Source of the DNA: Fidelibacterota bacterium
GTDB lineage: Bacteria > Fidelibacterota > UBA2242
Assembly (NCBI GenBank): GCA_016783665.1
Contig: JADHWC010000003.1
Location: 1,959-65,958, forward strand
Length of the DNA: 64,000 bases
Direction: 5' to 3'
Shown: positions 8,215 through 24,752 of the stretch, piece by piece
How the letters are laid out: every line of letters starts with the position of its first letter
How positions within the stretch are numbered: position 1 is the stretch's first letter
The notes under the pieces: model-generated
Told to the model about the DNA's origin: nothing
Databases searched by the model: none
The model's input: the letters and a program-made list of their open reading frames with translations, nothing else
Made by a program: the position numbers and the translations under genes

Positions 8215-10089
8215 TTATTTTGTCGCTTCTTCCATTATTTCATTCAAGCGCTGGACGAATTCCGTCGGATTTGTCAAATTGCCATCAATTAACATCGCTG
8301 ATTCATATAGCTGCAGAATTGACTTTCTCAGAAGCGGATCCTTGCTGTCGCCTATATTCAACCGGGACAAATTTTTAATTAAATGATGGACTGGATTTAT
8401 TTCAAGAATCTTTTTCCGGGGTATAACTTCCTGATTCATGATTTTCATCATTCTTTCCATTTGCGGATCCAAGCCATCTTTCCCGACGACCAAAGTCACA
8501 GGTGAATTTACCAGGCGTTTTGAGACTGTCACATCCTCTACTTTATCGCCAAGAGTTTCCTTAAATACCGAAATCAGTGAGTTTGTCATTGTCTCGTTTA
8601 GCGAATCAGCTTCTTCACTGTCTTTATCCTTTTTCTCATCATCCAGCGTGATATCCGCTTTATCGATGGATTTTAAGGGTTTTTTATCATACTCGTTTAT
8701 TGATGGAGTGACAAAAACGTCCACCGGATCAGTCATTAACAATACTTCGATATCATTTTTCCTGAAATATTCAAGATTAGGATTTCTTTCCACAATATCC
8801 CGGTCCTCGCCTGAAAGATAATAAATCTCTCTCTGCTTTTTCTTCATTCGTGTGATATAATCGTCCAGTGATACCAATTCCCCTTTTGGTTTTGCCGTCG
8901 ATTCAAAACGAAGAAGTTTGATAATTTTATCACGGTTTCCAAAGTTACTATTAACACCTGTTTTGAATAGCATACCAAAATTCTTATAGAACTTTTCAAA
9001 TTTGCCGATATCATTTTTTGACCAATCTTCAAGCATATTGATAATTCTGGTGGTTAAAATTGTTTTGATTTTAGCCATAACCGGACTGTGCTGTGTGACT
9101 TCACGAGAGATATTTAATGGTAAATCTTCCGTATCAACAACACCACGAACAAATGTTAAATATTCCGGTAATAGATCTTTAGCATCGTCCTGAATAAAAA
9201 TACGATTTGAATAGAGATGAAGTCCTTTATCTTCAAGATCATAAAAAAGATTCATTGGAGCTTTTGGCGGTACAAACAATAAAGCCTTAAAGTTAACCGC
9301 GCCTTCGAGAGATAGATGCAGATGACCAAGCGGAGCTTCAAAATCATTAGCGACAAACTTATAAAACTCGATCAATTCATCCTCTTTTAATTCATCTTTT
9401 GACCGGCGCCATAAAGCATCAACAGTATTCGCTTTCTCTTTGCCTATTTCAATCGGGAAATCGACAAAGTTAGAATATTTTTTAATAGTCGATTTAACGC
9501 GATAATCTTCACTAAAATCTTTATGTTCATCCTTTAAACGGAAACTGATTGATGTACCCCGTTTCTTACGGTCAATTTCCTCTATTGTAAATGAACCTTG
9601 TCCGTTTGACGTCCAGCGATACCCTTTTGACCCGGGATTAGCGTGACGGGTTTCTATGACTACCTCGTCAGTTACCATAAAAACAGAATAAAATCCAACG
9701 CCAAATTGACCGATTAAATCTCCCTCAGGAACTTTCCCATTTTTCTGTATCTCTTCCAAAAACTTCAACGTACCGGAATTTGCCACCGTACCGATGTTCT
9801 TGATCAGATCTTCTTCGGTCATTCCAATACCCGAATCTTCTATCGAAAATAACTGCTTTTTAGTATCCAAATTTATCGATATTTTCAGATCAGCATCAGG
9901 ATCAGTGATTTCCTGATTCGTTATCTGTAAAAAACGTACTTTATTCAAGGCATCGGAGGCATTGGAGATTAATTCTCTTAGAAATACTTCCGGATGAGTA
10001 TAAAGGGAATGAACAATCAGATGAAGCAGTTGAGTTAATTCTGCTTTAAACTTATAGGTTTTTTTTGATTTAGTCGAATTTTTAGCCAT
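8215..10089 (-). CDS. htpG: Molecular chaperone HtpG (Hsp90)
   Basis: 624 aa with the GHKL ATPase motif LRELISNASDAL near the N-terminus and a typical Hsp90 middle and C-terminal domain. Confidence 0.95.
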   Translation of the reverse strand: MAKNSTKSKKTYKFKAELTQLLHLIVHSLYTHPEVFLRELISNASDALNKVRFLQITNQEITDPDADLKISINLDTKKQLFSIEDSGIGMTEEDLIKNIGTVANSGTLKFLEEIQKNGKVPEGDLIGQFGVGFYSVFMVTDEVVIETRHANPGSKGYRWTSNGQGSFTIEEIDRKKRGTSISFRLKDEHKDFSEDYRVKSTIKKYSNFVDFPIEIGKEKANTVDALWRRSKDELKEDELIEFYKFVANDFEAPLGHLHLSLEGAVNFKALLFVPPKAPMNLFYDLEDKGLHLYSNRIFIQDDAKDLLPEYLTFVRGVVDTEDLPLNISREVTQHSPVMAKIKTILTTRIINMLEDWSKNDIGKFEKFYKNFGMLFKTGVNSNFGNRDKIIKLLRFESTAKPKGELVSLDDYITRMKKKQREIYYLSGEDRDIVERNPNLEYFRKNDIEVLLMTDPVDVFVTPSINEYDKKPLKSIDKADITLDDEKKDKDSEEADSLNETMTNSLISVFKETLGDKVEDVTVSKRLVNSPVTLVVGKDGLDPQMERMMKIMNQEVIPRKKILEINPVHHLIKNLSRLNIGDSKDPLLRKSILQLYESAMLIDGNLTNPTEFVQRLNEIMEEATK

Positions 10090-10221
10090 TGGATAATTCC
10101 TTATATAATTTGCATAATTATTGAAAAGCGCATTGAGATGTTACGAATATCATGCCAAAATTTTTAAACGTCATATTGTCAGATATTATTTCCGGAATAC
10201 CATAAAACCTAACCTGGATAA

Positions 10222-10287
10222 ACCCCCGAAGGGGCAGGCCCGCCTGCTCCCGAACCGCTACGGCGGAGAGGGTGGGCAGGCAGAGCC
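10222..10287. repeat. GC-rich palindromic element E1 (REP-like)
   Basis: A ~65 bp segment of >65% GC in ~35% GC surroundings (cccccgaaggggcaggcccgcctgctcccgaaccgctacggcggagagggtgggcagg). It shares gctcccgaac...gagaggg(t/c)gggcagg with the element inside hsdS (19419-19497, opposite strand). Confidence 0.7.
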
Positions 10288-10340
10288 AAAAAGGAAAAGA
10301 GTTAAAAGTGAAAAATGAACAGGCTGTTCCAGTCCAGGCG

Positions 10341-10490
10341 ATTCTGGATACTGGATTCTGGATACTGGATTCTGGATTCTGGATACTGGATTCTAGATAC
10401 TGGATTCTGGATACTGGGTACTGGATTCTGGATACTGGGTACTGGATTCTGGATACTGGGTACTGGATTCTGGATACTGGGTACTGGATA
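10341..10490. repeat. Tandem heptanucleotide array (~21 x [a/t]ctgg[a/g]t) with a 21-bp higher-order unit actgggtactggattctggat x4
   Basis: Direct reading shows attctggatactggattctggat... ending in four perfect 21-mers, in the divergent region between htpG and the receiver/hydrogenase operon. The 79-aa ORF listed here is its translation. Confidence 0.9.
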
Positions 10491-10798
10491 AGAAAAAAAA
10501 CAAGAATATGATTAGTAAGGGACTAATTGTTCACGAAATACGCTATAAATTGTAAATCTTTTGGAGTTTTATGGCAAATATTGTATGCTCCTTTAGATTT
10601 CATTTATTATATTACGGCGCTTTGATGGTTTATTGAAAACACTATAGTACGTATCAGATATCTAACAGCTAAGCGTATATGATACAGTTGCAATAAATTC
10701 TCTGTAAATAAGCCCCTTTTATCAGGCTATTTTAAATAGTATGACCGGGGATAATCGTACATAAAAAATATTAGATCACATTTTAGGAGGACTGTTTA

Positions 10799-11170
10799 AT
10801 GGCGAAAATATTAATAGTCGATGATGACGAAGACTTTGTATCGGCTGTCAATCTCTTACTGAAAAGCAACGGTTTTGATGTTGCAATTGCAAATTCCCGC
10901 CAGGAAGGAATGGAAAAATTTGATGAAGATAATCCGGACCTGGTCTTATTGGACGTGATGATGGATGAACCGGATGACGGATTTGTAATGGCTCAATCGC
11001 TCAAGAAAAAAGCGAAGGACATCCCGGTTCTGATGTTAACAAATGTCGGACAGGTTACAGGTCTGGATTTTGACAAAGACAGTGAAATGGTTCCCGTCGA
11101 TGATTTTGAGCAAAAACCAATTATGCCAAATATATTACTTGATAAAATAAACCAACTTCTTGGCAAATAA
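10799..11170 (+). CDS. Stand-alone response-regulator receiver domain protein (CheY-like)
   Basis: 123 aa: ILIVDDDEDF...LVLLDVMMD (acidic pocket and phospho-acceptor Asp) with AGGAGG RBS; sits immediately upstream of the hydrogenase genes. Confidence 0.8.
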   Translation: MAKILIVDDDEDFVSAVNLLLKSNGFDVAIANSRQEGMEKFDEDNPDLVLLDVMMDEPDDGFVMAQSLKKKAKDIPVLMLTNVGQVTGLDFDKDSEMVPVDDFEQKPIMPNILLDKINQLLGK

Positions 11171-11182
11171 GGAGATAGGTCA

Positions 11183-12919
11183 ATGCAAATTATCGATAGA
11201 CAAAAAGTAAACAAACAAATTAAGGAACTGAAGAAAAAATATGGTGACGATCGCTCCGCTCTAATGCCGATACTTCAGGACCTTCAGGAAATTTACGAGT
11301 ATCTTCCGGATGTTGTAATGCAGGAGACGGCGCATTCTCTTGGAATTCACCCTGTGGAAGTTGAAGGTGTTGCCAGTTTTTACAGCTTCCTTCGCACGAA
11401 GGAAAAACAGGGCAAATATGTCATCCGGCTATGCCGGACAATTTCCTGTGATCTCGCCGGCAAATCAAATGTTGCCCGCCAGCTGGAAAATGAAATGGGC
11501 ATCAAATTCGGCGAAACAACAAAAGATGGAAAATTCACACTCGAATATACAAACTGCCTTGGAATGTGCGATCGAGGACCTGCCCTGATGATCAATGATC
11601 GTCTGTTTGCAAAGGTAGATCCTGAGAAAGCATCTCAAATCATAGCAGATTGTCGCAGGGATTTTTTAAAGAGCGACTTTCCGAAAGTTGTTCCCTCAGA
11701 TGTTAAGAAAGCCGGACCGATCCTGGATCATGGTTTAAAACCTGCTGAAGCAATAAAAAAAGCGCTTAGTATGTCACGCTCGGAAATCATTAATACTATC
11801 CGTGAATCCGATCTAAAAGGTCGCGGAGGCGCAGGTTTTCCTACTGCTGTTAAATGGCAGCTCGCCGGCGCCGCAAAAGGCGAAAACAAATATGTCGTCT
11901 GTAACGCCGATGAAGGTGAACCGGGAACTTTCAAAGATCGTATGCTGCTTTACGAACATACCGATTTTCTTCTTGATGGAATGACCATTGGCGCTTATGC
12001 AATCGGCGCTTCAAAAGGTTTCATCTACCTGCGTGGTGAATATCTCTATATGAAAAAATATCTTGAGGAAGCCCTGGAAAATCGCCGGTCGGAACATCTG
12101 CTTGGAAAAAATATCCTCGGGAAAGATGGTTTTCACTTTGATATTCGAATCCGAATGGGAGCCGGCGCTTATGTATGTGGTGAAGAGACTGCCTTAATTG
12201 AATCTCTTGAAGGCTATCGCGGTGAACCCCGCAACCGTCCGCCCTTCCCTGTCGACACAGGATTCCAGGGTAATCCGACAATCGTCAACAATGTCGAAAC
12301 TTTTATTGATTCAGCCTTGATAATTGTAAAAGGGTACGAGTGGTTCAATATTCATGGAACAGAAAAATCGAAGGGCATGAAGATCTTCAGCATCTCAGGC
12401 GATTGCGAACGTCCCGGTATTTACGAGTTTCCTTTCGGAATTAAGGTTTCCGAATTATTAAAAGAAGTTGGCGGTGAAGACGCAAAAGCAGTCCAGATTG
12501 GCGGCGCTTCCGGTCATTGTATATCACGAAAAGACTTTACCCGTACTATTGCTTTCGAAGATATCGGATCGGGCGGTTCAATTATTGTTTTCGGGCCTGA
12601 TACCGATATGCTGCAGGTAGCCAAGAACTTCCTTGAATTCTTCGTGGAAGAATCCTGCGGACAATGCACACCTTGCCGGGATGGCAATCCGAAGCTGCTC
12701 GAAGGTATCGAAATGCTCGAAAATGGACGTTGTTCCGTTACCTATCTCAATGAATTAAAAAAATTAGGCGAAACGATTCAGAATGCATCAAAATGCGGTC
12801 TTGGCCAATCAAGTCCTAACGCATTCTTATCTATTGTTGACAATTTTAAACCAGAAATCCTTGGCCCGGCAGCTGCCGGGAAGCTGACTAAGGAGGAGCG
12901 CTATGCAAGAAAAAGATAA
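11183..12919 (+). CDS. NuoE-NuoF-like fusion (HydC/HydB-like NADH-binding flavoprotein subunit of a multimeric [FeFe] hydrogenase)
   Basis: N-terminal thioredoxin-like [2Fe-2S] NuoE domain (CRTISCDLAG...CLGMCDRGPA); NuoF FMN/NADH motifs (RGRGGAGFPT, GAGAYVCGEETALIESLEG); 4Fe-4S motif ESCGQCTPCRDG. No extra C-terminal ferredoxin domains. Confidence 0.88.
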   Translation: MQIIDRQKVNKQIKELKKKYGDDRSALMPILQDLQEIYEYLPDVVMQETAHSLGIHPVEVEGVASFYSFLRTKEKQGKYVIRLCRTISCDLAGKSNVARQLENEMGIKFGETTKDGKFTLEYTNCLGMCDRGPALMINDRLFAKVDPEKASQIIADCRRDFLKSDFPKVVPSDVKKAGPILDHGLKPAEAIKKALSMSRSEIINTIRESDLKGRGGAGFPTAVKWQLAGAAKGENKYVVCNADEGEPGTFKDRMLLYEHTDFLLDGMTIGAYAIGASKGFIYLRGEYLYMKKYLEEALENRRSEHLLGKNILGKDGFHFDIRIRMGAGAYVCGEETALIESLEGYRGEPRNRPPFPVDTGFQGNPTIVNNVETFIDSALIIVKGYEWFNIHGTEKSKGMKIFSISGDCERPGIYEFPFGIKVSELLKEVGGEDAKAVQIGGASGHCISRKDFTRTIAFEDIGSGGSIIVFGPDTDMLQVAKNFLEFFVEESCGQCTPCRDGNPKLLEGIEMLENGRCSVTYLNELKKLGETIQNASKCGLGQSSPNAFLSIVDNFKPEILGPAAAGKLTKEERYARKR

Positions 12920-14831
12920 ATTATTTGAAGAAACAAACCGGTCCCCTAAAAGTACAAAAACGGCTTCCGTAAAAATACCGGTAAATACTGAGGCGATTGG
13001 TGCGCTTATTAAAGTCACTATCGACGATAAAGAGATCAGAGTTCCAATGGGAACCACAATTCTCGAAGCTGCCGGAAAGCTCGGGATAAACATTCCTACA
13101 TTATGCTATCATGAAGACCTGTGTATCAGCGGTGTCTGTCGTATATGTGTTGTAGAGATTGAAGGATATAGAACGCTTCAGGCATCTTGCGCTTTTACGA
13201 TCACTCAAGCGATTAATGTTCATACTCACACCCGTAAAGTCCGCCAGGCGCGCCGTCATATACTTGATCTTCTGCTTTCGAATCATTATGGCGAATGCTA
13301 CACTTGTGTTCGGAATAACAATTGCGAACTACAGAAATTAGCCAATGAATACGGCGTTGATTTTTACCGCTTCGGACATGTTGAAAAACCGACTTACGGT
13401 CGTGATGAATCTTCCTATGCAATTGTCCGCGATATGGATAAATGTATCATGTGCCGGCGTTGCGTACGCACCTGTATCGATCTGCAGGAAGTCGGCGTCT
13501 ATGAAGCTATGAATAAAGGCGCTGAAACCCATATCGGAACATTTATGGATAATCCCATGGCGCAGTTGATCTGCATCAATTGCGGTCAATGTATCAACCG
13601 CTGCCCAACCGGCGCATTACATGCTAACGATCCGTCAGACACAATCTGGGCGGCAATCGACGATCCGACAAAACATGTTGTAATCCAGACCGCTCCGGCC
13701 CCGCGTTCGGCGATTGGAGAATGCTTCGGACTGGAACCCGGCAAACCACTTACATTCGAAATGAATACAGCGATGCGCTATTGTGGCTTTGATAAGGTAT
13801 TTGACACAAACTTTACGGCAGACCTTACAATTATTGAAGAAGGCACTGAACTGATTCTGCGACTGTATAATGCGCTTGTGAAAAAGGAACAGCAAGCCCT
13901 GCCGCAGTTCACATCCTGTTCGCCGGGCTGGGTAAAATATATCGAACATTTTAATCCGGAAATGTTAGCACATGTCTCCTCTGTTAAAAGTCCGCAGCAG
14001 ATGTTCGGTGCGGTTATTAAAACCTATTATGCCGGACTCAATAATATCGATCCGGCTGATATTGTCACGGTGGCTTTAATGCCCTGCACGGCAAAGAAAT
14101 TCGAATGCAATCGTCCTGAAATGAACGATTCCGGTTTTAAGGATATTGATTACGGTTTAACCACACGCGAACTGGCGCAGATGTTTAAGGAAACCGGCAT
14201 AGACCTGGTAAATATGAAAAAATCGGATTTCGACGATCCTTTTGGAACTGCAACGGGTTCCGGCGTTATTTTTGGCGCAACCGGCGGTGTGATGGAATCC
14301 GCTCTCCGCTCGGTATATGAATTCATTTCCGGCGAAAAGATCGAGAATCTGTTCGATCATGCCAGGATTGTTCCGGTGCGTGGATTTGAAGGCGTTCGCT
14401 ATGTGGAATTGCCCATTGCCAAAGTCGGACCCGTGCCGGACATCCTCAAACATCTTGTTCCCGATTGGAACTGGCTGAAGGGCGTCACATTGAAAGTTGC
14501 GGTATGTCACGGTACTGCAAACGCCAAAAAAATTCTCGATGATATAAAAGCCGGCGGCAGAATGAGTGAATGCCATTTTATCGAATTCATGGCTTGCCCG
14601 GGCGGATGTCTCGGCGGCGGCGGTATGCCGATCCCGACCGATGAAAAGATCCGCGCTGCCCGCGCTAAAGCAATTTATGCCGAAGATGAATCCTCCGAAG
14701 TCCGGAAATCCTATGAGAATCCCGCTATTATAAGACTCTACTCTGAATTTCTCAGCGACGGACCATGTGGACATAAAAGCCATAAATTGCTGCATACCGG
14801 TTACACGCCGCGAGGGAAAAAACTGGTTTAA
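12903..14831 (+). CDS. hydA: [FeFe] hydrogenase catalytic subunit HydA (M3-type, with N-terminal [2Fe-2S] and accessory [4Fe-4S] domains)
   Basis: H-cluster motifs L2 MPCTAKKFE and L3 EFMACPGGCLGGGG are present; L1 reads TSCSPGW rather than the canonical TSCCPxW; N-terminal CYHEDLCISGVCRIC [2Fe-2S] and CxxCxxCxxxCP ferredoxin motifs; overlaps the upstream gene by 17 nt. Confidence 0.9.
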   Translation: MQEKDKLFEETNRSPKSTKTASVKIPVNTEAIGALIKVTIDDKEIRVPMGTTILEAAGKLGINIPTLCYHEDLCISGVCRICVVEIEGYRTLQASCAFTITQAINVHTHTRKVRQARRHILDLLLSNHYGECYTCVRNNNCELQKLANEYGVDFYRFGHVEKPTYGRDESSYAIVRDMDKCIMCRRCVRTCIDLQEVGVYEAMNKGAETHIGTFMDNPMAQLICINCGQCINRCPTGALHANDPSDTIWAAIDDPTKHVVIQTAPAPRSAIGECFGLEPGKPLTFEMNTAMRYCGFDKVFDTNFTADLTIIEEGTELILRLYNALVKKEQQALPQFTSCSPGWVKYIEHFNPEMLAHVSSVKSPQQMFGAVIKTYYAGLNNIDPADIVTVALMPCTAKKFECNRPEMNDSGFKDIDYGLTTRELAQMFKETGIDLVNMKKSDFDDPFGTATGSGVIFGATGGVMESALRSVYEFISGEKIENLFDHARIVPVRGFEGVRYVELPIAKVGPVPDILKHLVPDWNWLKGVTLKVAVCHGTANAKKILDDIKAGGRMSECHFIEFMACPGGCLGGGGMPIPTDEKIRAARAKAIYAEDESSEVRKSYENPAIIRLYSEFLSDGPCGHKSHKLLHTGYTPRGKKLV

Positions 14832-14939: not shown

Positions 14940-17888
14940 TTACACTTTCTCTGAATAATCCTCAAACAACACTCTTTTCACATACTGATTCCGTTTGGGC
15001 TCAGTGAGCTTTTTGTAAAAACCCAAACTATCATCCACCAATCCTTGTAGTAATTTGTCAAATACCTTGTTGAACATAAATCTTTTATTGGATTCTGTGT
15101 TATCACCAAGATGAACTTTCCGTAGTTCCTTATCCTCATTCAACCGGGTTTGTATTTTTTCCAAATTCACTTTGTCATCGTCGTTCAAATCACTACCAAA
15201 GTTCTCATTTAGGACTTGTATGATATGGGATAGTAAATCTTTGAGTTCTTCGGGTGGAGATTCACCCACCCCGGTTGATATAGGTTGTAACTCCCCATCC
15301 TCATACATCAGGGAAATCGGATAGCTATGTTTCTTCTCAATCCTGAAATACTCCAAATCCACATAGGAAAAAACATCTGCCAATCTATCTCTTGTTCTCC
15401 TGGGGAGTTTCCTGTTCAGGAATCGCAGGAAGATATACAGTTTTTCAAGCTTTATATCTTTGAAAGTGATGATTTGAGAAATGTATCCGTACAGTCTAAT
15501 AAAACTCTGAATCTGATGACGGAAATCTTCCCTTTCTTCTTCCTCCAACCTCTTCCAATCTTCTACCACATAGTCCAAAATGGGTTGTAGTTCTTCATCG
15601 GGTATTCTGTCATCGTAGAACTTCTCTATCAACTCATTTACTGTTTCATCCCGGAATAGATTGTATTTCTTTATTTCTTGTTCAATGGAATACAGTTTGT
15701 TGGGGTCGGTTTCCTCTACAAGTAGAGTCCCTTGATAGTATGGTTGGAATGAATCCTGAATGATTTCCGGTTTATTCACAAAGTCCAATACAAGAGTGTC
15801 AGTCTTACCTGTCATCGTTCTGTTCAACCTGCTCAAAGTCTGAACGCACTGGAGTCCTTGAAGTCGTTTATCTACATACATTGTATGAAGTAACGGTTCG
15901 TCAAATCCTGTTTGAAACTTGTTACAAACAATCAGGATTCTATACTGCGGGTCTTTGAAGTTCTCCTGGGTCAATCTTTCAGGGAAACCGTTCAATGATG
16001 GCTCTGTATATTCCTTGTGAGTATCCTTATCATACACCGTTCCACTAAATCCAACCAGGACTTTGAATGGAAATTCCATTTCTTTTAACTGCTTATCAAA
16101 TTCAAGTTTGTATTTGACACAGTGAAGTCTTGAGCGGGTCACCACCATTCCGCGACTCTTGCCGCTTATTTTTAGGGAGCTATGGTTCAGGAAGTGTTCT
16201 AAAATGATTTTGGTTTTTTCAGAGATGGTATGCGGATGAATATCTACATATTTCACCAACATCTTTTTTACACGACTTTCGGGCAGTTCCTTATCCTCCT
16301 CAATCTTTTTATTTAGACGGAAATATCGCTCATAAGTGGTGTAATTCTGTAAAACATCAAGAGTAAAATTTTCTGAAATACTCTGTCTCATTGAATACAA
16401 ATCAAAAGAAACGAACTGTCCGTCCTCGTTCTTTCTGCCAAAGATTTCAAATGTTTTATTCTTCGGTGTTCCACTAAAACCGAAATAGGAAATATGAGCT
16501 TGTCTTCCCCTTGAAATAATTTCATCTAATATCAGTTTATCCACTTCGGTAAGGTCATCCCAATCCTCACCTTCCTGGAACTCATCCAATACAGATTTGG
16601 ACAGAGATTTTTTCAGGTGTTTGGATGTTTCTCCACTTTGAGATGAATGAACTTCATCGATGATAACGCCGAACTTCTTACTTTTCAGTCTGGATATGGA
16701 ATCTGATATAACAGGGAATTTCTGAACTGTGGTAATGATGATGGATTTCCCCAATTCAAGGTATTCTTTCAACTGTTGGGAATTGACATCCACAGGATTC
16801 ACTACACCTTTGGTTTGTTCTAACTGTTTAACGGTATTCCGTATTTGTTTGTCTAAAACCTTTCTGTCTGTAACTACAATTACAGAATCAAACATACCTT
16901 CCGTGTCTGCGGGAGTTCTGTAAAGAGAAGTCAATAGATGAGACAACCAACCAATAGATAAGGATTTACCACTTCCTGTGCTGTGTTGTATCAGATAATT
17001 ATTTCCAACACCTTCTTCAACTACAGATTTCTTCAAGCTCCTGATGACATTCAATTGATGGAATCGGGGGAAAATCAGAAGTTCTTTTTTCTTATCAACC
17101 ACTTTCCCAAGCTTTGAATCATACACCTTCTCTTTTTCTTCACGGATATGAACAAAGTTCTCTATCAAATCCAACATACTGTTGGGATGTAGAATATCCT
17201 CCCACAGATAATGGGTTTTATGTCCTTTAGGATTGACAGGATTTTCAATGTCTTTGTTGTAAGGAAGAAACCGTGTCTTACCACCCATCAACCGTGTCGT
17301 CATTGACACTTTTTCATTCCCTACAGAAAAATACACAAGATTCCGTTTGAATCTGAACAACGGTTCTTTGGGATCGCGGTCATACTTCCATTGTTTCTCA
17401 CCGTCGATATGGTTCTGTCCCGTGAGTGTGTTTTTCAGTTCCATCATCACGATTGGGATTCCATCGATGAAGATTCCCATATCAATAGAGTTCTCATTTT
17501 TCAGAGAGTATTTCAGTTGTCGGATGACGGTAAAACGATTCTGTTTGTATAAATCTTTATGTTCAGGATTCAGCCCGCTCCTGGGCTGGAAATATACCAG
17601 GTGAAAATCACAGCCCCTGTCCTTGACGCCATTCCGTAAGACATCGATAACCCCTCTGTTTTCAATTTCTGTGGATACTCGTTTTATCAGTTTGATTTCT
17701 GTTTCAGAACCATATTGTAATTCAAGTTTTTCAAGGGTTTTAGCCTGGGTTTCCTGAATGAATTCAATCAGTTGGGCAGGAATAAGACAGAGAGTTTTAT
17801 CATATATGGATGGGTCTGATGAAGAATAACCACTACTGACAAGATGTTCTTCAATGTGTTCTTCAAAGTCTTGTTCAAGGTAATTCAT
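14940..17888 (-). CDS. hsdR: Type I restriction enzyme R subunit HsdR
   Basis: 982 aa with an N-terminal PD-(D/E)xK nuclease motif (IDGIPIVMMELK), SF2 helicase motif I (HSTGSGKS) and motif II (DEVH); lies in an hsdM/hsdS context. Confidence 0.85.
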   Translation of the reverse strand: MNYLEQDFEEHIEEHLVSSGYSSSDPSIYDKTLCLIPAQLIEFIQETQAKTLEKLELQYGSETEIKLIKRVSTEIENRGVIDVLRNGVKDRGCDFHLVYFQPRSGLNPEHKDLYKQNRFTVIRQLKYSLKNENSIDMGIFIDGIPIVMMELKNTLTGQNHIDGEKQWKYDRDPKEPLFRFKRNLVYFSVGNEKVSMTTRLMGGKTRFLPYNKDIENPVNPKGHKTHYLWEDILHPNSMLDLIENFVHIREEKEKVYDSKLGKVVDKKKELLIFPRFHQLNVIRSLKKSVVEEGVGNNYLIQHSTGSGKSLSIGWLSHLLTSLYRTPADTEGMFDSVIVVTDRKVLDKQIRNTVKQLEQTKGVVNPVDVNSQQLKEYLELGKSIIITTVQKFPVISDSISRLKSKKFGVIIDEVHSSQSGETSKHLKKSLSKSVLDEFQEGEDWDDLTEVDKLILDEIISRGRQAHISYFGFSGTPKNKTFEIFGRKNEDGQFVSFDLYSMRQSISENFTLDVLQNYTTYERYFRLNKKIEEDKELPESRVKKMLVKYVDIHPHTISEKTKIILEHFLNHSSLKISGKSRGMVVTRSRLHCVKYKLEFDKQLKEMEFPFKVLVGFSGTVYDKDTHKEYTEPSLNGFPERLTQENFKDPQYRILIVCNKFQTGFDEPLLHTMYVDKRLQGLQCVQTLSRLNRTMTGKTDTLVLDFVNKPEIIQDSFQPYYQGTLLVEETDPNKLYSIEQEIKKYNLFRDETVNELIEKFYDDRIPDEELQPILDYVVEDWKRLEEEEREDFRHQIQSFIRLYGYISQIITFKDIKLEKLYIFLRFLNRKLPRRTRDRLADVFSYVDLEYFRIEKKHSYPISLMYEDGELQPISTGVGESPPEELKDLLSHIIQVLNENFGSDLNDDDKVNLEKIQTRLNEDKELRKVHLGDNTESNKRFMFNKVFDKLLQGLVDDSLGFYKKLTEPKRNQYVKRVLFEDYSEKV

Positions 17889-18089: not shown

Positions 18090-18665
18090 CGTAACCCACG
18101 AATTTATTCGTGGGTGATACAATAATGTCTAAACCAAACCGATTCATCGGTTTATCTCCAGATTATGCAACTTCATGAATTGTTCATATTCCTCTTTGAA
18201 GGTCATTTTACGATGATGCTCTTCTTGCGTTCGGATGTATCGTTCGACTTTTCCCACATCAGATTCACTAACAGAAAACGCTCCATAGCCAACCTGCCAA
18301 CTGAATTTTAATTGTACTAAATCCTCCTGATTAATCCAATGAGACGTTTCCCCTTTGATAGATTTCATTACTTGAGCAATTGAGACCTCTCTGGAAAGTA
18401 AAAATAATTGATGCACATGGTCACTTGTCCCATTGATAATTAGAACCTTACAATCCATTTCCTCCAATTTCTCGTATAAATGGGTATGTACATCTTTACG
18501 GATAGCATTAACAAGCAATGGTCTCCGATCTTTAGTTCCAAAGATGCCGTGTATCCATAATTTTGTTAGTGAGTGACTCATAACTTTCCTTTGTATAAAC
18601 CGTTAAAACGGTTTCCTTTTTGTTGTTGTTCATGCTCCCACGATTGAAATCGTGGGTTTCTAACA
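18090..18665 (-). mobile_element. IS200/IS605-family (possibly RAYT-like) element inserted between hsdR and hsdS
   Basis: A Y1/HuH tnpA gene is flanked on each side by a pair of hairpins in mirror arrangement. Left side: cccacgaatttattcgtggg then aaccgattcatcggtt; right side: aaccgttaaaacggtt then cccacgattgaaatcgtggg. Confidence 0.7.
18144..18581 (-). CDS. tnpA: IS200/IS605-family tyrosine (HuH, Y1) transposase TnpA
   Basis: 145 aa with HuH motif (SDHVHQLF) and a C-terminal catalytic Tyr region (ERYIRTQ); N-terminal WIHGIFGTKDRRPLL resembles IS200 TnpA and RAYT. Confidence 0.8.
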   Translation of the reverse strand: MSHSLTKLWIHGIFGTKDRRPLLVNAIRKDVHTHLYEKLEEMDCKVLIINGTSDHVHQLFLLSREVSIAQVMKSIKGETSHWINQEDLVQLKFSWQVGYGAFSVSESDVGKVERYIRTQEEHHRKMTFKEEYEQFMKLHNLEINR

Positions 18666-18721: not shown

Positions 18722-20158
18722 TCATCTTGATTGTGTCTCTCCTTCAACCAAGACGGTTGAGTTATACCCCCTCACATCAATTTTCCCCGTCACCACTTCG
18801 GAAATAAGTGATTGACGGTATTCTTTTAAAAGTTCAATTCGTTGGGTTTCTTTTTCAATGGTAGTGTCAATCTTTTGGGTTTGTTCATCAAGATATTCAA
18901 CGATTTGGTGTTGTTCAGTATTGGTTGGTTTTGGATAAACCATATTTGAATATTTTTCACCATTCACATTTTCAATAGTTGAAGTGATTGTGTTTAGACG
19001 AATCCAATATAAATAAAAATCAGTTTTCGTTGTGTAAAAGACAAATTTTGAAGAAAAATAATCCCCAAAATTGAATCTTACTAAATAACCACCTGAAGAA
19101 TACATACCATCTTGAAGATGTAAATATGATTTGCCTACAGTATGTCCACTTCTACATAACAACAAATCATATTTATCCAATAGAAACTCTACATCCACAT
19201 CTGATTCAATTAAATATTTTCCATTATCGGGATTCAATTCTCCACAATCATCAAGGTCTGTAATCCTTATAAACCTTACACCATTTTCAGTATATCTGTC
19301 ACTACTAATATTGAGACCATAACGAACTGGTATTAGTGTATCGTATTTAAGTTTTGAAATAGTCCAACCACTCGGAATCTCCCCAATCCACTTAACACCA
19401 CTATCTTTCATCTCCACATTCCTGCCCGCCCTCTCGTCCGTTCGGGAGCCAGCCTGCTCACGGAGTGCTGGCAGGCAGGCGGGGGGGTTCAGCCCTTTGG
19501 TCACACAATGATTGATAAGGGCAGTTCGTTTTTCTTTCAGGAGTTCGATCTTCTTTTCTGTTTTTTCAATCAGTTCGTCAATCTTTTGGGTTTTGTGGTC
19601 AAGGAAGGAGACGATTTGTATTTGTTCTCTTTTTGGAGGAATCAAGAATTGAAAAGTAGAAATCTCTTCTTGACTCAACATTGGGATTGTTGTAATTGAA
19701 CCAATCAAATTAATTTGAGTAAAAATGTGATTTGATTGTAAATAGTACCAAAGAAATATTGGATTTTCTTTTATTTGATTAACCAAAACAAGACTCGGAT
19801 TGATTGTCATTTCACCATAATCTTCATCAATGAATACTACTTTCCCTAAACTTCCCCTTTGACTAATAATCATATCACCTTTTTTCACCATAATCTCGGG
19901 GGACTCATAATATTTATCCCAACTCAAAAAGTCAGGATTTGATAGGTCTATTTTTTGGGATGAGTTGATATGTTTCCCTCCAAGAACTAAACATCCTTCC
20001 CCTTCATCTACAAAATCAGTTTTCTTATATCCTTTGTATCCAATCCTACCCTGTAAATTTACAATATATCCAAGTTTTTTTCTTGCCCACCCACTCGGTA
20101 TCTCTCCAATCCACTCAACTTCACTATCTTTATATGACGGATACGGTCTCATTATCAA
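18722..20158 (-). CDS. hsdS: Type I restriction-modification specificity subunit HsdS (two target-recognition domains)
   Basis: 478 aa with duplicated EVEWIGEIPSGW / GVKWIGEIPSGW TRD starts, a central coiled-coil conserved region, and C-terminal ...LISEVVTGKIDVR. Confidence 0.85.
   Translation of the reverse strand: MIMRPYPSYKDSEVEWIGEIPSGWARKKLGYIVNLQGRIGYKGYKKTDFVDEGEGCLVLGGKHINSSQKIDLSNPDFLSWDKYYESPEIMVKKGDMIISQRGSLGKVVFIDEDYGEMTINPSLVLVNQIKENPIFLWYYLQSNHIFTQINLIGSITTIPMLSQEEISTFQFLIPPKREQIQIVSFLDHKTQKIDELIEKTEKKIELLKEKRTALINHCVTKGLNPPACLPALREQAGSRTDERAGRNVEMKDSGVKWIGEIPSGWTISKLKYDTLIPVRYGLNISSDRYTENGVRFIRITDLDDCGELNPDNGKYLIESDVDVEFLLDKYDLLLCRSGHTVGKSYLHLQDGMYSSGGYLVRFNFGDYFSSKFVFYTTKTDFYLYWIRLNTITSTIENVNGEKYSNMVYPKPTNTEQHQIVEYLDEQTQKIDTTIEKETQRIELLKEYRQSLISEVVTGKIDVRGYNSTVLVEGETQSR
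19419..19497. repeat. GC-rich palindromic element E2 inserted in-frame in the hsdS inter-TRD linker
   Basis: A ~78 bp stretch of ~70% GC inside a ~33% GC gene. It translates to ...PPACLPALREQAGSRTDERAGRNV... exactly between the central conserved helix (TKGLNP) and TRD2 (EMKDSGVKWIGEIPSGW). Its reverse complement is similar to E1 at 10222-10287. Confidence 0.7.
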
Positions 20159-20239: not shown

Positions 20240-21304
20240 CTATTCTTCGCCTGCAAATAGTGTAAATAATGGTAAGTTGACATAATAGTTACTATTTTTG
20301 ATTTTCATTTTTTTTACAAAGCCATCTTCTGATAACTGATTGAGATAACCGGATGCCGTTTTTCTTGACACCCTTAATTCATGTTCAACAAACTCTATTT
20401 TTGTATAAGGATGTTTAAACAAGTTGTTTATCAAATCCTGGCTATAAAATTTATATTGATTTCTTATTCGATGTTTATAATCCATCATCAACCGCTTAAT
20501 CTCAGAAATAATTATGACGGTGTGTTGCGATGTTTCTGCAATGCCATTTAACATCCAGATAATCCATGATTCCCAATCATTCTCCGTGCGAACACCTTGC
20601 AACAATTGATAATAATCCGTTTTGTTCTCAATAATGTATTTGCTGAGATAAAGAACCGGAATATCAAGTAGTTTTTTTTGTAGTAGATACAGAATATTGA
20701 TAATTCGCCCGGTCCTGCCATTACCATCATAAAAAGGATGAATACTTTCAAACTGATAGTGAATGATTGCCATTTTAATCAACGGATCAATATCGTGCAG
20801 TGAATCTTCATTGATATAATTTTCAAGATTGCTCATTAACGCAACAATTTCATTTGCATCCTGTGGCGGTTTGTAGATGGTTTCTCCAGCGCTGTTTTGC
20901 AATACCGTGCCAGGTATTCTTCGAAAACCTTGCTTTATCGGCTCAATTATTTTTTGAATTTCCAAAATATAATTATTTGTCAAAAGATGGTGCTTTTTGA
21001 CCAGTTTAAATCCTTTTTTCAAAGCATTTGCATAATTTTTCACCTCTTTTGCCGCTAGATTATTGAAACTATCGTCCGCATCCGCACGGTAAAGATCATC
21101 TTGAGTAGTTATTATATTTTCAATTGCAGAACTATCTTTTGCTTCTTGTAAAGCAAGTGTATTTATAAGAATTTCTTCATTAGGAATTGTTTTGGATTCT
21201 CCTTTCAACTCCCCCAACGCCCGACTGGCTTTGTTTAAATTTTCATAAATATCCGATGTTTTGACATTTATATCCAGAGGCAACTTTTGCAATGATATAT
21301 TCAT
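20240..21304 (-). CDS. fic: Fic/DOC family protein (adenylyltransferase-type Fic)
   Basis: 354 aa with Fic motif HPFYDGNGRTGR; overlaps the hsdM stop by 4 nt and lies between hsdM and hsdS. Confidence 0.85.
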   Translation of the reverse strand: MNISLQKLPLDINVKTSDIYENLNKASRALGELKGESKTIPNEEILINTLALQEAKDSSAIENIITTQDDLYRADADDSFNNLAAKEVKNYANALKKGFKLVKKHHLLTNNYILEIQKIIEPIKQGFRRIPGTVLQNSAGETIYKPPQDANEIVALMSNLENYINEDSLHDIDPLIKMAIIHYQFESIHPFYDGNGRTGRIINILYLLQKKLLDIPVLYLSKYIIENKTDYYQLLQGVRTENDWESWIIWMLNGIAETSQHTVIIISEIKRLMMDYKHRIRNQYKFYSQDLINNLFKHPYTKIEFVEHELRVSRKTASGYLNQLSEDGFVKKMKIKNSNYYVNLPLFTLFAGEE

Positions 21305-23090: not shown

Positions 23091-24752
23091 TTAAATTTCT
23101 TCTATTCTATCTTTATTTATCCATTGTAAAAATGTTGGATATTTTTGCACTGATGAAATTAGGTATACTTTTTTCTTTGTTCTAGTTAGTGCAACAAGAA
23201 AATTACATATATCTCGATCAGTATTTTTAGTTTTGTCATTATCTTTTATAAAATAACGATCATCGAAATGAGTAATAAATACTAGATCTCCTGAAAGACC
23301 TTTTGAGCTTTGTATTGTTGTAGTTTTAATCGGTATTTTTCTGATAGCAGGAATACCTACGGGTTGAAAAACATTATTTATTTTTTCACGTGCGAATTCA
23401 TTTAATATGGCATAAGGATCTATGTTAATTTTTTTCATAATGTCAATAAATTCATCATTATCAATAGGCTTTTTATCTTTTATCTTTTTTAGTATTTTTA
23501 AAATACTTTTTACTTCTTTTTTAAAATCCTTATCAACTATTTCATAAATCATTTTACTAGAATTTGAATATGTAGCACTTAATAAAGTACTAAAATCATC
23601 ATTCGATAATAGATATTTTGAAACTATACGCCAACCGAGGTTATCATTGATATTGTTAAGTAGAAGTTTAAAACCATCTAAAAGGGATACTTCTTTTTCA
23701 TCCTTTATCTTACACTCAATATTTTGCATCCCTTTTTTCTTCAATGCCTCGGCAATAAAATTAGATTGTTTTCTATAAGGAGAAATAATTAATACTGAAA
23801 ATTTATTTCTTAAATCTTTTGCCATTTCGCTTATCTTTTTTTCAATAAACCAAGGTATTTGACTTGCGAATATCTGTTTGTATCCAATAGTTGAATATTT
23901 TTCACTTTCTTTATCTTTTTCTTTTTCGTGAAAATATTGAAATGGTTTATTAATACGTTGATCAAGAAAATCAAATTTTTTAGCAGCAATTATAATGTCA
24001 TTTGTTGCATCGACGATAACTTGTGTACACCGAGCACAAAATGGTAATTTGAATGATTCATAATCGGGTACATCATCTCCAAACCTTTCTCGTATATGTC
24101 GAGTACTAGCATTTTTAAATTCATAAAGCGCCTGATCATCATCACCTGCTAATAATATCGAACTTTTTTCAGATAGTAAATCGATAAGGGATACTTCAAG
24201 TTTATTAAAATCCTGAAATTCATCTATTAAAATTTGATCATATGATGGTATTCTTTCTCTATATTTTTCAAAATACTTTACTAATGCATAGATAATACTT
24301 GAATAACCATAGTAATTATAATAATCGACTCGCTTTTTATAAAACTGAAGTAATTCATCATTATCTTTTCTATTATGAAATAGATATTCGAAATCAACTT
24401 CTTTTCTAAGAATATATTGGGTATCCTCTTTTATAACATTTGTAAGTTTCGGAAAAATATTAATACTTCTACTCTTGACAGCACTAAGCGTACTTCGGGC
24501 GAAACTGTGAAGTGTTTTGACGTCTGACATACCATATAATTCTAAGGATAAATCTTCAACAAGAGAATTAATAAAGGTTAGTGTCAATGAATTTTTTTTA
24601 CCCTCAAGTATTTTTCTAAATAGAAAGGTCTTCCCTGTACCTGGTCCGGCAACAACAACCTTTTTGAATGATTTTGAATTTAATATCGCATCAACATGTT
24701 TTTTCCTATCATTTATTGCTTTGGAATAAACTGATCCGTCTAGCTCTGACAT
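23091..24752 (-). CDS. UvrD/Rep-like superfamily-1 DNA helicase (stand-alone, very AT-rich gene)
   Basis: 553 aa with Walker A (AGPGTGKTF), motif II-like (LIDEFQDFN), GDDDQALYEF, and C-terminal motif VI-like (VALTRTKKKVYL). Confidence 0.75.
   Translation of the reverse strand: MSELDGSVYSKAINDRKKHVDAILNSKSFKKVVVAGPGTGKTFLFRKILEGKKNSLTLTFINSLVEDLSLELYGMSDVKTLHSFARSTLSAVKSRSINIFPKLTNVIKEDTQYILRKEVDFEYLFHNRKDNDELLQFYKKRVDYYNYYGYSSIIYALVKYFEKYRERIPSYDQILIDEFQDFNKLEVSLIDLLSEKSSILLAGDDDQALYEFKNASTRHIRERFGDDVPDYESFKLPFCARCTQVIVDATNDIIIAAKKFDFLDQRINKPFQYFHEKEKDKESEKYSTIGYKQIFASQIPWFIEKKISEMAKDLRNKFSVLIISPYRKQSNFIAEALKKKGMQNIECKIKDEKEVSLLDGFKLLLNNINDNLGWRIVSKYLLSNDDFSTLLSATYSNSSKMIYEIVDKDFKKEVKSILKILKKIKDKKPIDNDEFIDIMKKINIDPYAILNEFAREKINNVFQPVGIPAIRKIPIKTTTIQSSKGLSGDLVFITHFDDRYFIKDNDKTKNTDRDICNFLVALTRTKKKVYLISSVQKYPTFLQWINKDRIEEI

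Follow-up and report, generated by a model that had tools for sequence, protein, structure and literature searches.

The tandem heptanucleotide array located between htpG and a receiver-hydrogenase operon in the window (the whole 64,000-nucleotide stretch of DNA considered here) is most probably, with a probability that we put at roughly 0.6, a long heptanucleotide repeat that was generated by slippage, is specific to its lineage, has expanded recently and sits as a passive spacer in a dispensable segment upstream of both promoters. Heptamer-repeat excess in bacteria is already known, and this locus adds another array of that kind. The host organism is Marinimicrobia-like as judged by its HtpG protein, which is 82% identical to proteins labelled Candidatus Marinimicrobia, and the G+C content of the window is 39%.

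Anatomy of the array

When cut in register, window positions 10341-10490 resolve into 21 heptamers arranged head to tail and followed by ATA, as can be read directly in the sequence. The plus strand is the G-rich strand of the array (CTGGAT), and the units belong to the variants ATTCTGG, ATACTGG and GTACTGG, with ATTCTAG occurring once. Counted from 10341, units 1-9 are ATTCTGG, ATACTGG, ATTCTGG, ATACTGG, ATTCTGG, ATTCTGG, ATACTGG, ATTCTAG and ATACTGG; after unit 9, the set ATTCTGG ATACTGG GTACTGG is repeated four times before the closing ATA. Tandem Repeats Finder (TRF) detects the array both with period 7 (10340-10490, 21.6 copies, 82% matches, score 204) and with period 21 (10341-10489, 7.1 copies, 93% matches, score 228). 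The description given in the earlier note, namely about 21 heptamers with a 21-bp super-period and a last 84 bp made of four perfect 21-mers, is confirmed by TRF and by in-register cutting. Since the four 21-mers are identical, a recent block amplification is indicated. The elements of the array and of its immediate surroundings are as follows.

10341..10490, no strand assigned: heptanucleotide tandem array, 21 full units plus ATA
10341..10403, no strand assigned: older part of the array, nine units of ATTCTGG/ATACTGG with one ATTCTAG, the same in strain locus L002 (99.2% identity)
10404..10487, no strand assigned: most recently amplified block, the 21-mer ATTCTGG ATACTGG GTACTGG four times, all copies identical
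10326..10340, no strand assigned: GTTCCAGTCCAGGCG, two inverted complementary-type units (CCAGT, CCAGG) touching the left end of the array, read from the sequence
10214..10221, no strand assigned: CTGGATAA, a direct repeat of the right end of the array (10484-10491)

A search of the 64-kb window for WCTGGRTWCTGGRT, a two-unit degenerate pattern, with at most one mismatch returned 20 matches, where shuffled sequences lead one to expect 0.27, and every match lies within the array. The search for further arrays of the same unit, advocated in the earlier note, hence yields no other array in the 64-kb window.

Flanking genes and conserved blocks of the spacer

The array lies in a 709-bp spacer between divergent genes, the features of which are given here in the order of their coordinates.

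8215..10089, minus strand: htpG (Hsp90 family), 624 aa; PF00183, E = 2.5e-123
10090..10208, minus strand: htpG-proximal conserved block, ~119 bp, recognized by conservation in relatives
10144-10117: sigma-70-like site GTAACA-16-AATAAT in the htpG block, from a weak consensus scan
10141..10159: TTACGAATATCATGCCAAA, in the htpG-proximal block
10209..10524, no strand assigned: lineage-specific segment of 316 bp, delimited by BLAST breakpoints at 10208 and 10525; it contains a GC-rich element and the array and has an A-rich tail
10525..10798, plus strand: receiver-proximal conserved block, ~274 bp, recognized by conservation in relatives, with a Shine-Dalgarno sequence AGGAGG
Within 10720-10745: conserved palindrome CTATTTTAAATAG, in the receiver block
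10799..11170, plus strand: stand-alone receiver (response regulator), 123 aa; PF00072 only, without DNA-binding output domain
11183..12919, plus strand: NuoE/NuoF-fusion gene
12903..14831, plus strand: [FeFe]-hydrogenase large-subunit gene, HydA

The distance is 251 nt from the htpG start codon to the start of the array and 308 nt from its end to the receiver start codon, in agreement with the earlier note (~250 bp and ~300 bp), whose gene identities also hold. Promoter positions were deduced from conservation and the weak consensus scan, according to which block 10090-10208 is the probable promoter and operator region of htpG, and block 10525-10798 probably contains the promoter and leader of the receiver-hydrogenase operon. 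The same type of scan picked out a -35-like TGGATA contributed by the last array unit, 16 nt before TATGAT (10485-10512). A terminator scan detected no intrinsic terminators in the spacer.

The locus in strains and relatives

Strain loci were obtained by exact-protein look-ups in metagenome assemblies and relatives by look-ups of HtpG homologues. Gene order is kept in the relatives, with hydA, nuoEF and the receiver gene on one side and htpG, obg and dprA on the other, and alignment of the spacers reveals two conserved blocks around an unalignable middle. Spacer lengths are listed below with DNA identities to the window.

Window: spacer 709 bp
L141: about 96% DNA identity, spacer 628 bp
L138-L140: 93% DNA identity (measured on L138), spacer 398 bp
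L142-L144: about 74% DNA identity (measured on L142), spacer 505 bp
L145: about 72% DNA identity, spacer 344 bp

The GC-rich element and the array, including its ATTCTAG variant unit, are present in three strain loci that are ~100% (L001, L003) or 99.2% (L002) identical in DNA to the window, and among the relatives compared the array is shared only by these strains (at least 99% identical; 99.2-100%). No CTGGRTN array was found at the orthologous spacer in five related lineages that keep the genes. In L138, the GC-rich element and the array are absent (316 bp missing) and the two conserved blocks are directly joined, so that the promoters most likely lie outside the array; if this is right, the array cannot set -35/-10 spacing. 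Elsewhere, segment 10209-10524 is replaced by other inserts (L141, L160 and L142). The insert of L141, at the same spot, is ~270 bp long, has imperfect terminal inverted repeats and combines a heptamer array of its own, (CAAATTT) x 5, with a long GC-rich palindromic stretch. L160 (92% identity) is a mosaic that starts like L141, with two heptamers instead of five, and continues like the L142 insert. The change of (CAAATTT)n from five copies in L141 to two in L160 means that heptamer copy number varies between relatives at this spot. These observations do not favour the proposal that the array is a control element for the hsp90 or hydrogenase locus: it is absent in the 93% relative, other inserts are found elsewhere and the adjacent regulator has no DNA-binding domain.

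Two scans of metagenomes were also made. One scan for the left junction of the array gave 0 matches, and the conserved 19-mer of the htpG block gave chance matches only, plus one contig already in the set. Some other contigs end within the spacer.

Copy number was compared across strains, as the earlier note had recommended. L002 contains two 21-mers instead of four, and its spacer accordingly measures 667 bp versus 709 bp. In both L001 and L003, a 100-N gap is located exactly at the array, and the pieces flanking the gap overlap by exactly 55 nt, which suggests an assembly k of 55. Five 56-mers specific to the 2-copy allele are present in these gap-flanking pieces. The 2-copy allele may truly coexist with longer alleles in the L001 and L003 samples, or the 2-copy form could be a collapsed lower-k path carried into the final graph; SPAdes passes contigs of earlier k rounds into later rounds. 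A difference of 2 versus 4 21-mers between same-species assemblies is on record, for which assembly collapse may account.

These data bear on the view, put forward in the earlier note, that the array is a copy-number-variable promoter spacer. In its full form this view sees a contingency or phase-variation element, whose slippage-driven copy number would tune the expression of htpG or of the receiver-hydrogenase operon via distance or helical phase, either between divergent promoters or from an upstream site to a promoter, like the 7-bp repeats of the Haemophilus influenzae adhesin genes hmw1A/hmw2A. The perfect repeat block, the two allele lengths with their gaps and 2-copy-specific 56-mers, the preservation of helical phase that 21-bp steps would ensure and the functional heptamer precedents (PMC8262952, PMC12721329) are all consistent with it. 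However, the array lies outside both conserved blocks, is wholly missing in close relatives with the same genes and, being 251 and 308 nt off the start codons, probably does not take the position of the hmw1A/2A type (between promoter elements or between promoter and start codon). Furthermore, htpG and a fermentative hydrogenase are unlike the usual phase-varied surface or host-interaction genes, the organism is free-living and environmental, the 2-copy form could be a collapse, and phase variation was judged unlikely by Rehm et al. for the abundant heptamers of Xanthomonas and Nostoc (PMC4692102). What stands from the original view is a slippage-prone type of repeat, possibly of variable length; its role as a promoter spacer does not fit the location outside the conserved promoter blocks, and we regard a contingency element as quite unlikely.

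GC-rich element and lineage-specific segment

The array shares the lineage-specific segment with a GC-rich element composed of hairpins.

10222..10290, no strand assigned: GC-rich hairpin element; G+C reaches 61% in the 100-nt stretch 10200-10299, against 39% in the genome
10223-10234: hairpin CCCC-CGAA-GGGG, in the GC-rich element
10237-10287: long imperfect hairpin, in the GC-rich element

Copies of CTGGATAA enclose the GC-rich element together with the array. The most serious rival to the slippage-generated repeat, although an unlikely one, is that the array came as cargo of a small module, mobile or recombining, GC-rich and palindromic (MITE- or REP-like), with this spacer as its target; it would then be part of that element and not a repeat born locally. 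Several findings point towards it: the array adjoins an element of 61% G+C in a genome of 39% G+C; the direct repeats bracket element and array together; the L141 insert occupies the same spot with imperfect terminal inverted repeats, heptamers of its own and the shared GGCCCGCCTGCT...GGGCAGGCAG, which is the only sequence common to the L141 GC-rich stretch and the window element; L160 combines modules resembling those of L141 with others resembling those of L142; both notable heptamer arrays of ~104 kb are in this spacer; and a Y1 (IS200-like) transposase gene with flanking REP-like hairpins lies 8 kb from the spacer. On the other hand, neither the window nor 160 loci nor viral contigs yielded a further copy of the GC-rich element or of the L141 end sequence, and the flanks of the element likewise lack a second copy in the window and the loci. 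MITEs, REPs and REPINs are marked by terminal inverted repeats or a REP hairpin and by multiple genomic copies; the window insert has no terminal inverted repeats, and that of L141 has imperfect ones. Y1 transposase hairpins were considered as the source of the spacer element and discarded, as their sequence (CCCACGA...TCGTGGG) is unrelated to it. Homology between the three GC-rich inserts (window, L141, L142) was likewise rejected, since they have only short motifs in common. GC-rich flanks as the usual companion of such arrays in AT-rich genomes did not prove general. Even if the cargo explanation were true, the four identical 21-mers would still need local amplification.

The aligned spacers indicate that GC-rich palindromic inserts, like heptamer repeats, accumulate preferentially in the middle of the spacer. 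In the ~104 kb sampled from the lineage, there are only two notable heptamer arrays, both in this spacer and each beside GC-rich palindromes. Two arrays in one spacer are more clustered than a genome-wide slippage bias by itself predicts, which hints at a link with the GC-rich modules. Taken further, the middle of the spacer would be a preferred landing or recombination site of an undescribed class of small palindromic modules, rich in G+C, which bring heptamer arrays with them or seed them, a proposal that we hold to be very unlikely. If true, the 7-nt arrays that recur across phyla, often as inverted G-/C-type pairs beside hairpins, would reflect a shared active mechanism and not passive slippage, for instance a mobile module or else a conserved protein reading a 7-nt lattice.

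Period-7 arrays in other genomes

The wide occurrence of similar arrays was seen directly in a scan for at least three CTGGRTW units, made in the part read of a collection of 185,579 species-representative genomes. It returned at least 120 loci in MAGs and genomes from more than 15 phyla, as compared with a chance expectation, by our own calculation, of ~35 matches over the whole collection. Among the matches listed, arrays reach 5 units or more in 81 loci and 10 or more in 33, and the longest has 43. The matches listed include Bacteroidota, Ignavibacteriota, Calditrichia, Planctomycetota, Verrucomicrobiota, Acidobacteriota and Gemmatimonadota, as well as Chloroflexota, Desulfobacterota, Nitrospirota, Armatimonadota, Patescibacteria, Cyanobacteria (Nostoc), Gammaproteobacteria and others. 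Units drift along the arrays, for example from CTGGATA via CTGAATG to CTGAAAA, and inverted pairs of G-type and C-type heptamer arrays occur in other phyla. With a crude longest-ORF gene model, no bias of orientation or position with respect to neighbouring genes was seen among the at least 120 loci.

A census of 842 kb around the matches listed counted 473 tandem arrays, 296 of them with a period of 7, 14, 21 or 28. Once the searched-for arrays and the 500 bp on either side of them are set aside, the period is still a multiple of 7 in 111 of 252 arrays, with very diverse units, and CTGG or CCAG is found in only 10 of these 111 (random expectation, 5.6%). In viral contigs, the real unit accounts for 105 stretches, of which about half come from a single sample, versus 41 and 32 for permuted control heptamers, which are thus within about 2-3-fold of it. 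The diversity of units together with the excess of period 7 suggests that the general feature is the 7-nt period and not the CTGGRTN unit, and because super-periods of 14, 21 and 28 are frequent in arrays elsewhere, the 21-bp period of this array carries no special meaning. The earlier note had spoken of an unusual control element; as a class of sequence, the array is not unusual, given the widespread unit family and the heptamer excess already published for bacteria (PMC4692102).

Structure, transcription and coding capacity

The DNA single strands of the array are predicted to be unstructured, so that neither hairpins nor slipped structures are expected from them. As RNA, the plus strand is predicted to fold with -51.8 kcal/mol versus -39.1 +/- 4.0 kcal/mol for shuffled sequences, via G-U pairs. 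A G-quadruplex was considered and dismissed: ViennaRNA with the G-quadruplex option chose none, and the control GGGGACU x 8 did form one. The units carry GG, and there are just four GGG runs, 21 nt apart, which falls short of the G-tracts emphasized by Rehm et al. 2015. Coding was also rejected: neither the two ORFs that cross the array (58 and 79 aa) nor one of 68 aa called in L142 has a Pfam match; the frames through the array are open because its unit is stop-free.

The excess stability of the RNA, the two ORFs that cross the array and the fact that most Xanthomonas heptamer repeats are transcribed (PMC4692102) could nevertheless suggest a transcribed element, which might belong to a long leader of htpG or of the receiver gene, or to a small RNA, and act at the RNA level by way of a G-U-rich hairpin or as a sponge for an RNA-binding protein, or else a small ORF for a (WILDTGY)n peptide. 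Comparisons with Rfam gave nothing relevant for the spacer (E <= 1) or for five related loci (E <= 0.1), and Pfam gave no match either; on reading of the sequence, the ATG at 10315 has no suitably spaced Shine-Dalgarno sequence, and the open frames are mechanical. With no G-quadruplex predicted and the element missing in close relatives, a transcribed element is extremely improbable.

Comparison with known heptamer repeats

Cyanobacterial STRR sequences, reportedly described by Mazel et al. in 1990, are short tandemly repeated repetitive heptamers such as CCCCAGT. The reverse complement of STRR1, ACTGGGG, is one base from the array unit ACTGGGT. Similar mixtures exist among the loci collected here, since the L091 array combines GGGGACT, the STRR1 reverse complement, with GGGTACT, and Nostoc arrays of GGGTACT occur in L053, L064 and L098. 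However, STRRs form abundant dispersed families in heterocystous cyanobacteria, whereas a single array of its unit is found here in 64 kb of a Marinimicrobia-like host. Three tandem heptanucleotides are mentioned for Calothrix PCC 7601 in PMC4692102.

One close parallel in general properties is with LSSR5-11 repeats, long simple-sequence repeats known from non-pathogenic bacteria. Heptameric repeats are over-represented among the simple-sequence repeats of many bacterial genomes and were barely characterised, according to Rehm et al. (PMC4692102, citing Mrazek 2007). The repeats of this type discussed for Xanthomonas and Nostoc share with the array (Mrazek et al. 2007, as cited in PMC4692102) head-to-tail 7-nt units, an intergenic location and up to tens of copies. 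A unit in the range of 5-11 nt is iterated here far beyond chance (21.6 copies, TRF score 204-228), and the array is non-coding, within the 709-bp spacer between htpG and the receiver gene and with no family match for its ORFs. The Xanthomonas GGGAATC and Nostoc GGGGA(C/T)T repeats vary in length between close relatives, and no regulatory role was identified for them (Rehm et al. 2015, PMC4692102). Inverted G-/C-type arrays, the lack of a demonstrated function and polymerase slippage as the proposed origin are common to those repeats and the present one. As to variation between close relatives, the array is present in some lineages and absent from others at 93-100% identity, and its 2 versus 4 21-mers could be an artefact of assembly. 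Unlike those repeats, the array has GG and rarely GGG and so misses the G-quadruplex rule stressed there, it stands between divergent genes, a position under-represented there (PMC4692102), and such arrays are not abundant in the portion of this genome that was sampled. In a Nostoc preprint, deletion of heptamer repeats is reported to have changed the activity of a recO promoter reporter (10.1101/2022.06.06.494920).

Direct repeats of TAACTGA are scattered over marine Beggiatoaceae, Cyanobacteria and some Bacteroidetes (MacGregor 2015, PMC4679880). They resemble the array in being tandem heptamers with a shared ACTG core, in occurring in unrelated phyla with up to 43 copies in some genomes and in having no known function. 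In Beggiatoaceae, however, they mostly number 2-6 copies and stand a few nt upstream of start codons in a fixed orientation, whereas the array is 251 and 308 nt from start codons and its unit displays no orientation bias among at least 120 loci.

Sequence-specific recognition is suggested for Geobacter metallireducens, in which five tandem MTYCTGA heptamers are putative regulator sites (PMC2700814). Its ATTCTGA is one base from ATTCTGG, the repeats are likewise tandem and largely intergenic, and mixed ATTCTGA/ATTCTGG arrays occur in L074, L125 and L134. Unlike the single 21-unit array described here, there are 16 similar sites in one genome, 15 of them with a fixed five copies, for which binding of a regulator was proposed. 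The similarity of units across phyla, including the MTYCTGA of G. metallireducens, leaves room for a shared binding factor.

A protein-binding array that recruits a regulator to the divergent promoter region would take the form of an iteron-like or nucleoid-protein lattice on double-stranded DNA, or of OB-fold proteins of the cold-shock type, each occupying one heptamer of single-stranded DNA or RNA. The unit is regular, near-identical units exist in many phyla, and the predicted lack of structure would leave single strands accessible. Beyond the 15 five-copy sites of G. metallireducens, putatively bound by a global regulator (PMC2700814), further precedents are the TTTTGAT repeats of Vibrio cholerae ctxAB, reported to recruit transcriptional regulators (bioRxiv 10.1101/2021.05.14.444153), and CspB, which reportedly binds heptamer direct repeats with one protein per heptamer (PMC4679880). 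However, an iteron or regulator array usually goes together with a cognate DNA-binding protein and with sites conserved along with the gene, and here the neighbour is receiver-only and the array is missing in five lineages. Diverse units in the same genomes and control units that are about as frequent argue against sequence-specific recognition, and no bias of strand or orientation relative to genes was observed. The more specific suggestion of binding sites on one DNA face fails on geometry, as a 7-bp step amounts to a turn of ~240 degrees and only the G-variant unit recurs every 21 bp. Altogether, we deem a binding array highly unlikely.

Proven functional heptamers are the ATCTTTC repeats of H. 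influenzae hmw1A/hmw2A (PMC8262952, PMC12721329), and the TTTTGAT heptads of V. cholerae ctxAB are comparable. They have in common with the array that 7-bp tandem repeats are located upstream of a gene and that their number can vary by slippage. Those repeats are inside the promoter or 5' leader of the regulated gene, are present in all strains in varying number and have measured effects on expression, whereas the array is outside conserved blocks and is missing in close relatives.

Origin and likely effect of the array

The slippage-generated, lineage-specific repeat accounts for the locus as follows. We infer that replication slippage, or else unequal recombination, would have made the array grow where it now lies. 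About nine alternating ATTCTGG/ATACTGG units would have been produced first; in a second phase, a three-unit block with point changes would have been amplified to four identical 21-mers. In different lineages, the insert spot gathers GC-rich palindromic inserts and heptamer repeats. Placed upstream of the two divergent promoters, the array would most likely serve as a passive spacer of unstable length and have no dedicated role in regulation; in individual strains it may have a modulatory effect on these promoters.

At the level of the locus, annotating the array as a control element for heat shock or hydrogenase is not warranted. More generally, CTGGRTN-family and period-7 arrays are common in uncultured members of many phyla, which extends the old and still unexplained preference for 7-nt units in long bacterial microsatellites, although this locus gives no answer to why. 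What the lineage does offer is a natural series for tests of promoter effects, in which identical conserved blocks enclose no insert, other inserts, or two or four 21-mers.

Inserts between conserved blocks of the htpG–receiver spacer

The spacer between htpG and the receiver gene has orthologues in relatives, among them loci at about 96% (L141), 92% (L160) and about 74% (L142) DNA identity:

L141:2873-3500, orthologous spacer
L160:1-310, orthologous spacer
L142:2996-3500, orthologous spacer

Between the conserved blocks (10090-10208 on the htpG side, 10525-10798 on the receiver side), all three carry unrelated inserts at the position equivalent to the lineage-specific segment of the window. 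In L141 the insert is MITE-like and about 270 bp long; its terminal inverted repeats are imperfect, and it contains (CAAATTT) x 5 and palindromes rich in GCCTGCC/GGCAGGC. L160 combines L141-like and L142-like modules in a mosaic, in which the CAAATTT heptamer occurs just twice. The GC-richer L142 insert holds a 68-aa ORF for which no family match was found. The middle of the spacer is an insertion or recombination hot spot.

Two motifs in the conserved blocks, themselves conserved in the relatives, are candidate operator or promoter elements:

10141-10159, TTACGAATATCATGCCAAA, upstream of htpG
10720-10745, palindrome CTATTTTAAATAG, about 60-70 nt upstream of the receiver gene

Read on the minus strand, the former is TTTGGCATGATATTCGTAA, which loosely resembles a -24/-12 type promoter.

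GC-rich element beside the heptamer array

The following element, present as a single copy within the window, lies beside the array:

10222-10290, GC-rich element (G+C content 61% over the 100 nt at 10200-10299, 39% for the genome)

It contains two hairpins, one of sequence CCCC-CGAA-GGGG and the other long and imperfect, with folding z-scores of about -2.8 to -3.0; on the minus strand they read as a long stem followed by CCCCUUCGGGGG-UUUAU. An Rfam search gave no match for the element. Two independent assemblies (L016, L017) break within it.

Neighbouring genes

In a strain at 99.2% identity (L002:3385-5123), a GG insertion at window position ~11777, checked in the ENA assembly, frameshifts the NuoE/NuoF-fusion gene (578 aa in the window). 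The result is two separate ORFs, a NuoE-like one of 211 aa and a NuoF-like one of 325 aa. Two assemblies, ENA (SPAdes) and Logan, have the split gene among their gene calls (loci L002, L004), the Logan support being this gene call.

Further along, a Y1 transposase gene and two REP-like hairpins (18093-18658) form a RAYT-like arrangement amid a type I restriction-modification system, with hsdR and hsdS on either side; no further copies of the hairpins occur elsewhere within the window.

14940-17888, hsdR
18093-18115, REP-like hairpin ACCCACGAATTTATTCGTGGGT
18144-18581, minus strand, Y1 (IS200-like) transposase gene, 145 aa
18637-18658, REP-like hairpin CCCACGATTGAAATCGTGGGTT
18722-20158, hsdS
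20240-21304, Fic/DOC-family gene between hsdS and hsdM
23091-24752, UvrD-like helicase gene, following these

Inverted heptamer pairs and viral arrays

In other phyla, an array of G-type heptamers often has a complementary array of C-type heptamers no more than tens of bases after it (L137:1012-1173; L036; L064:158-314; L098; L128), and inverted arrays of this kind could pair into long, imperfect hairpins. The window shows this arrangement in miniature at 10326-10340. Among the 105 viral loci with at least three CTGGRTW units (L161-L265), 83 have arrays of at least five. One sample, IMG 3300045988, supplies about half of the viral contigs with at least three units, which suggests a family of related phages carrying such an array.
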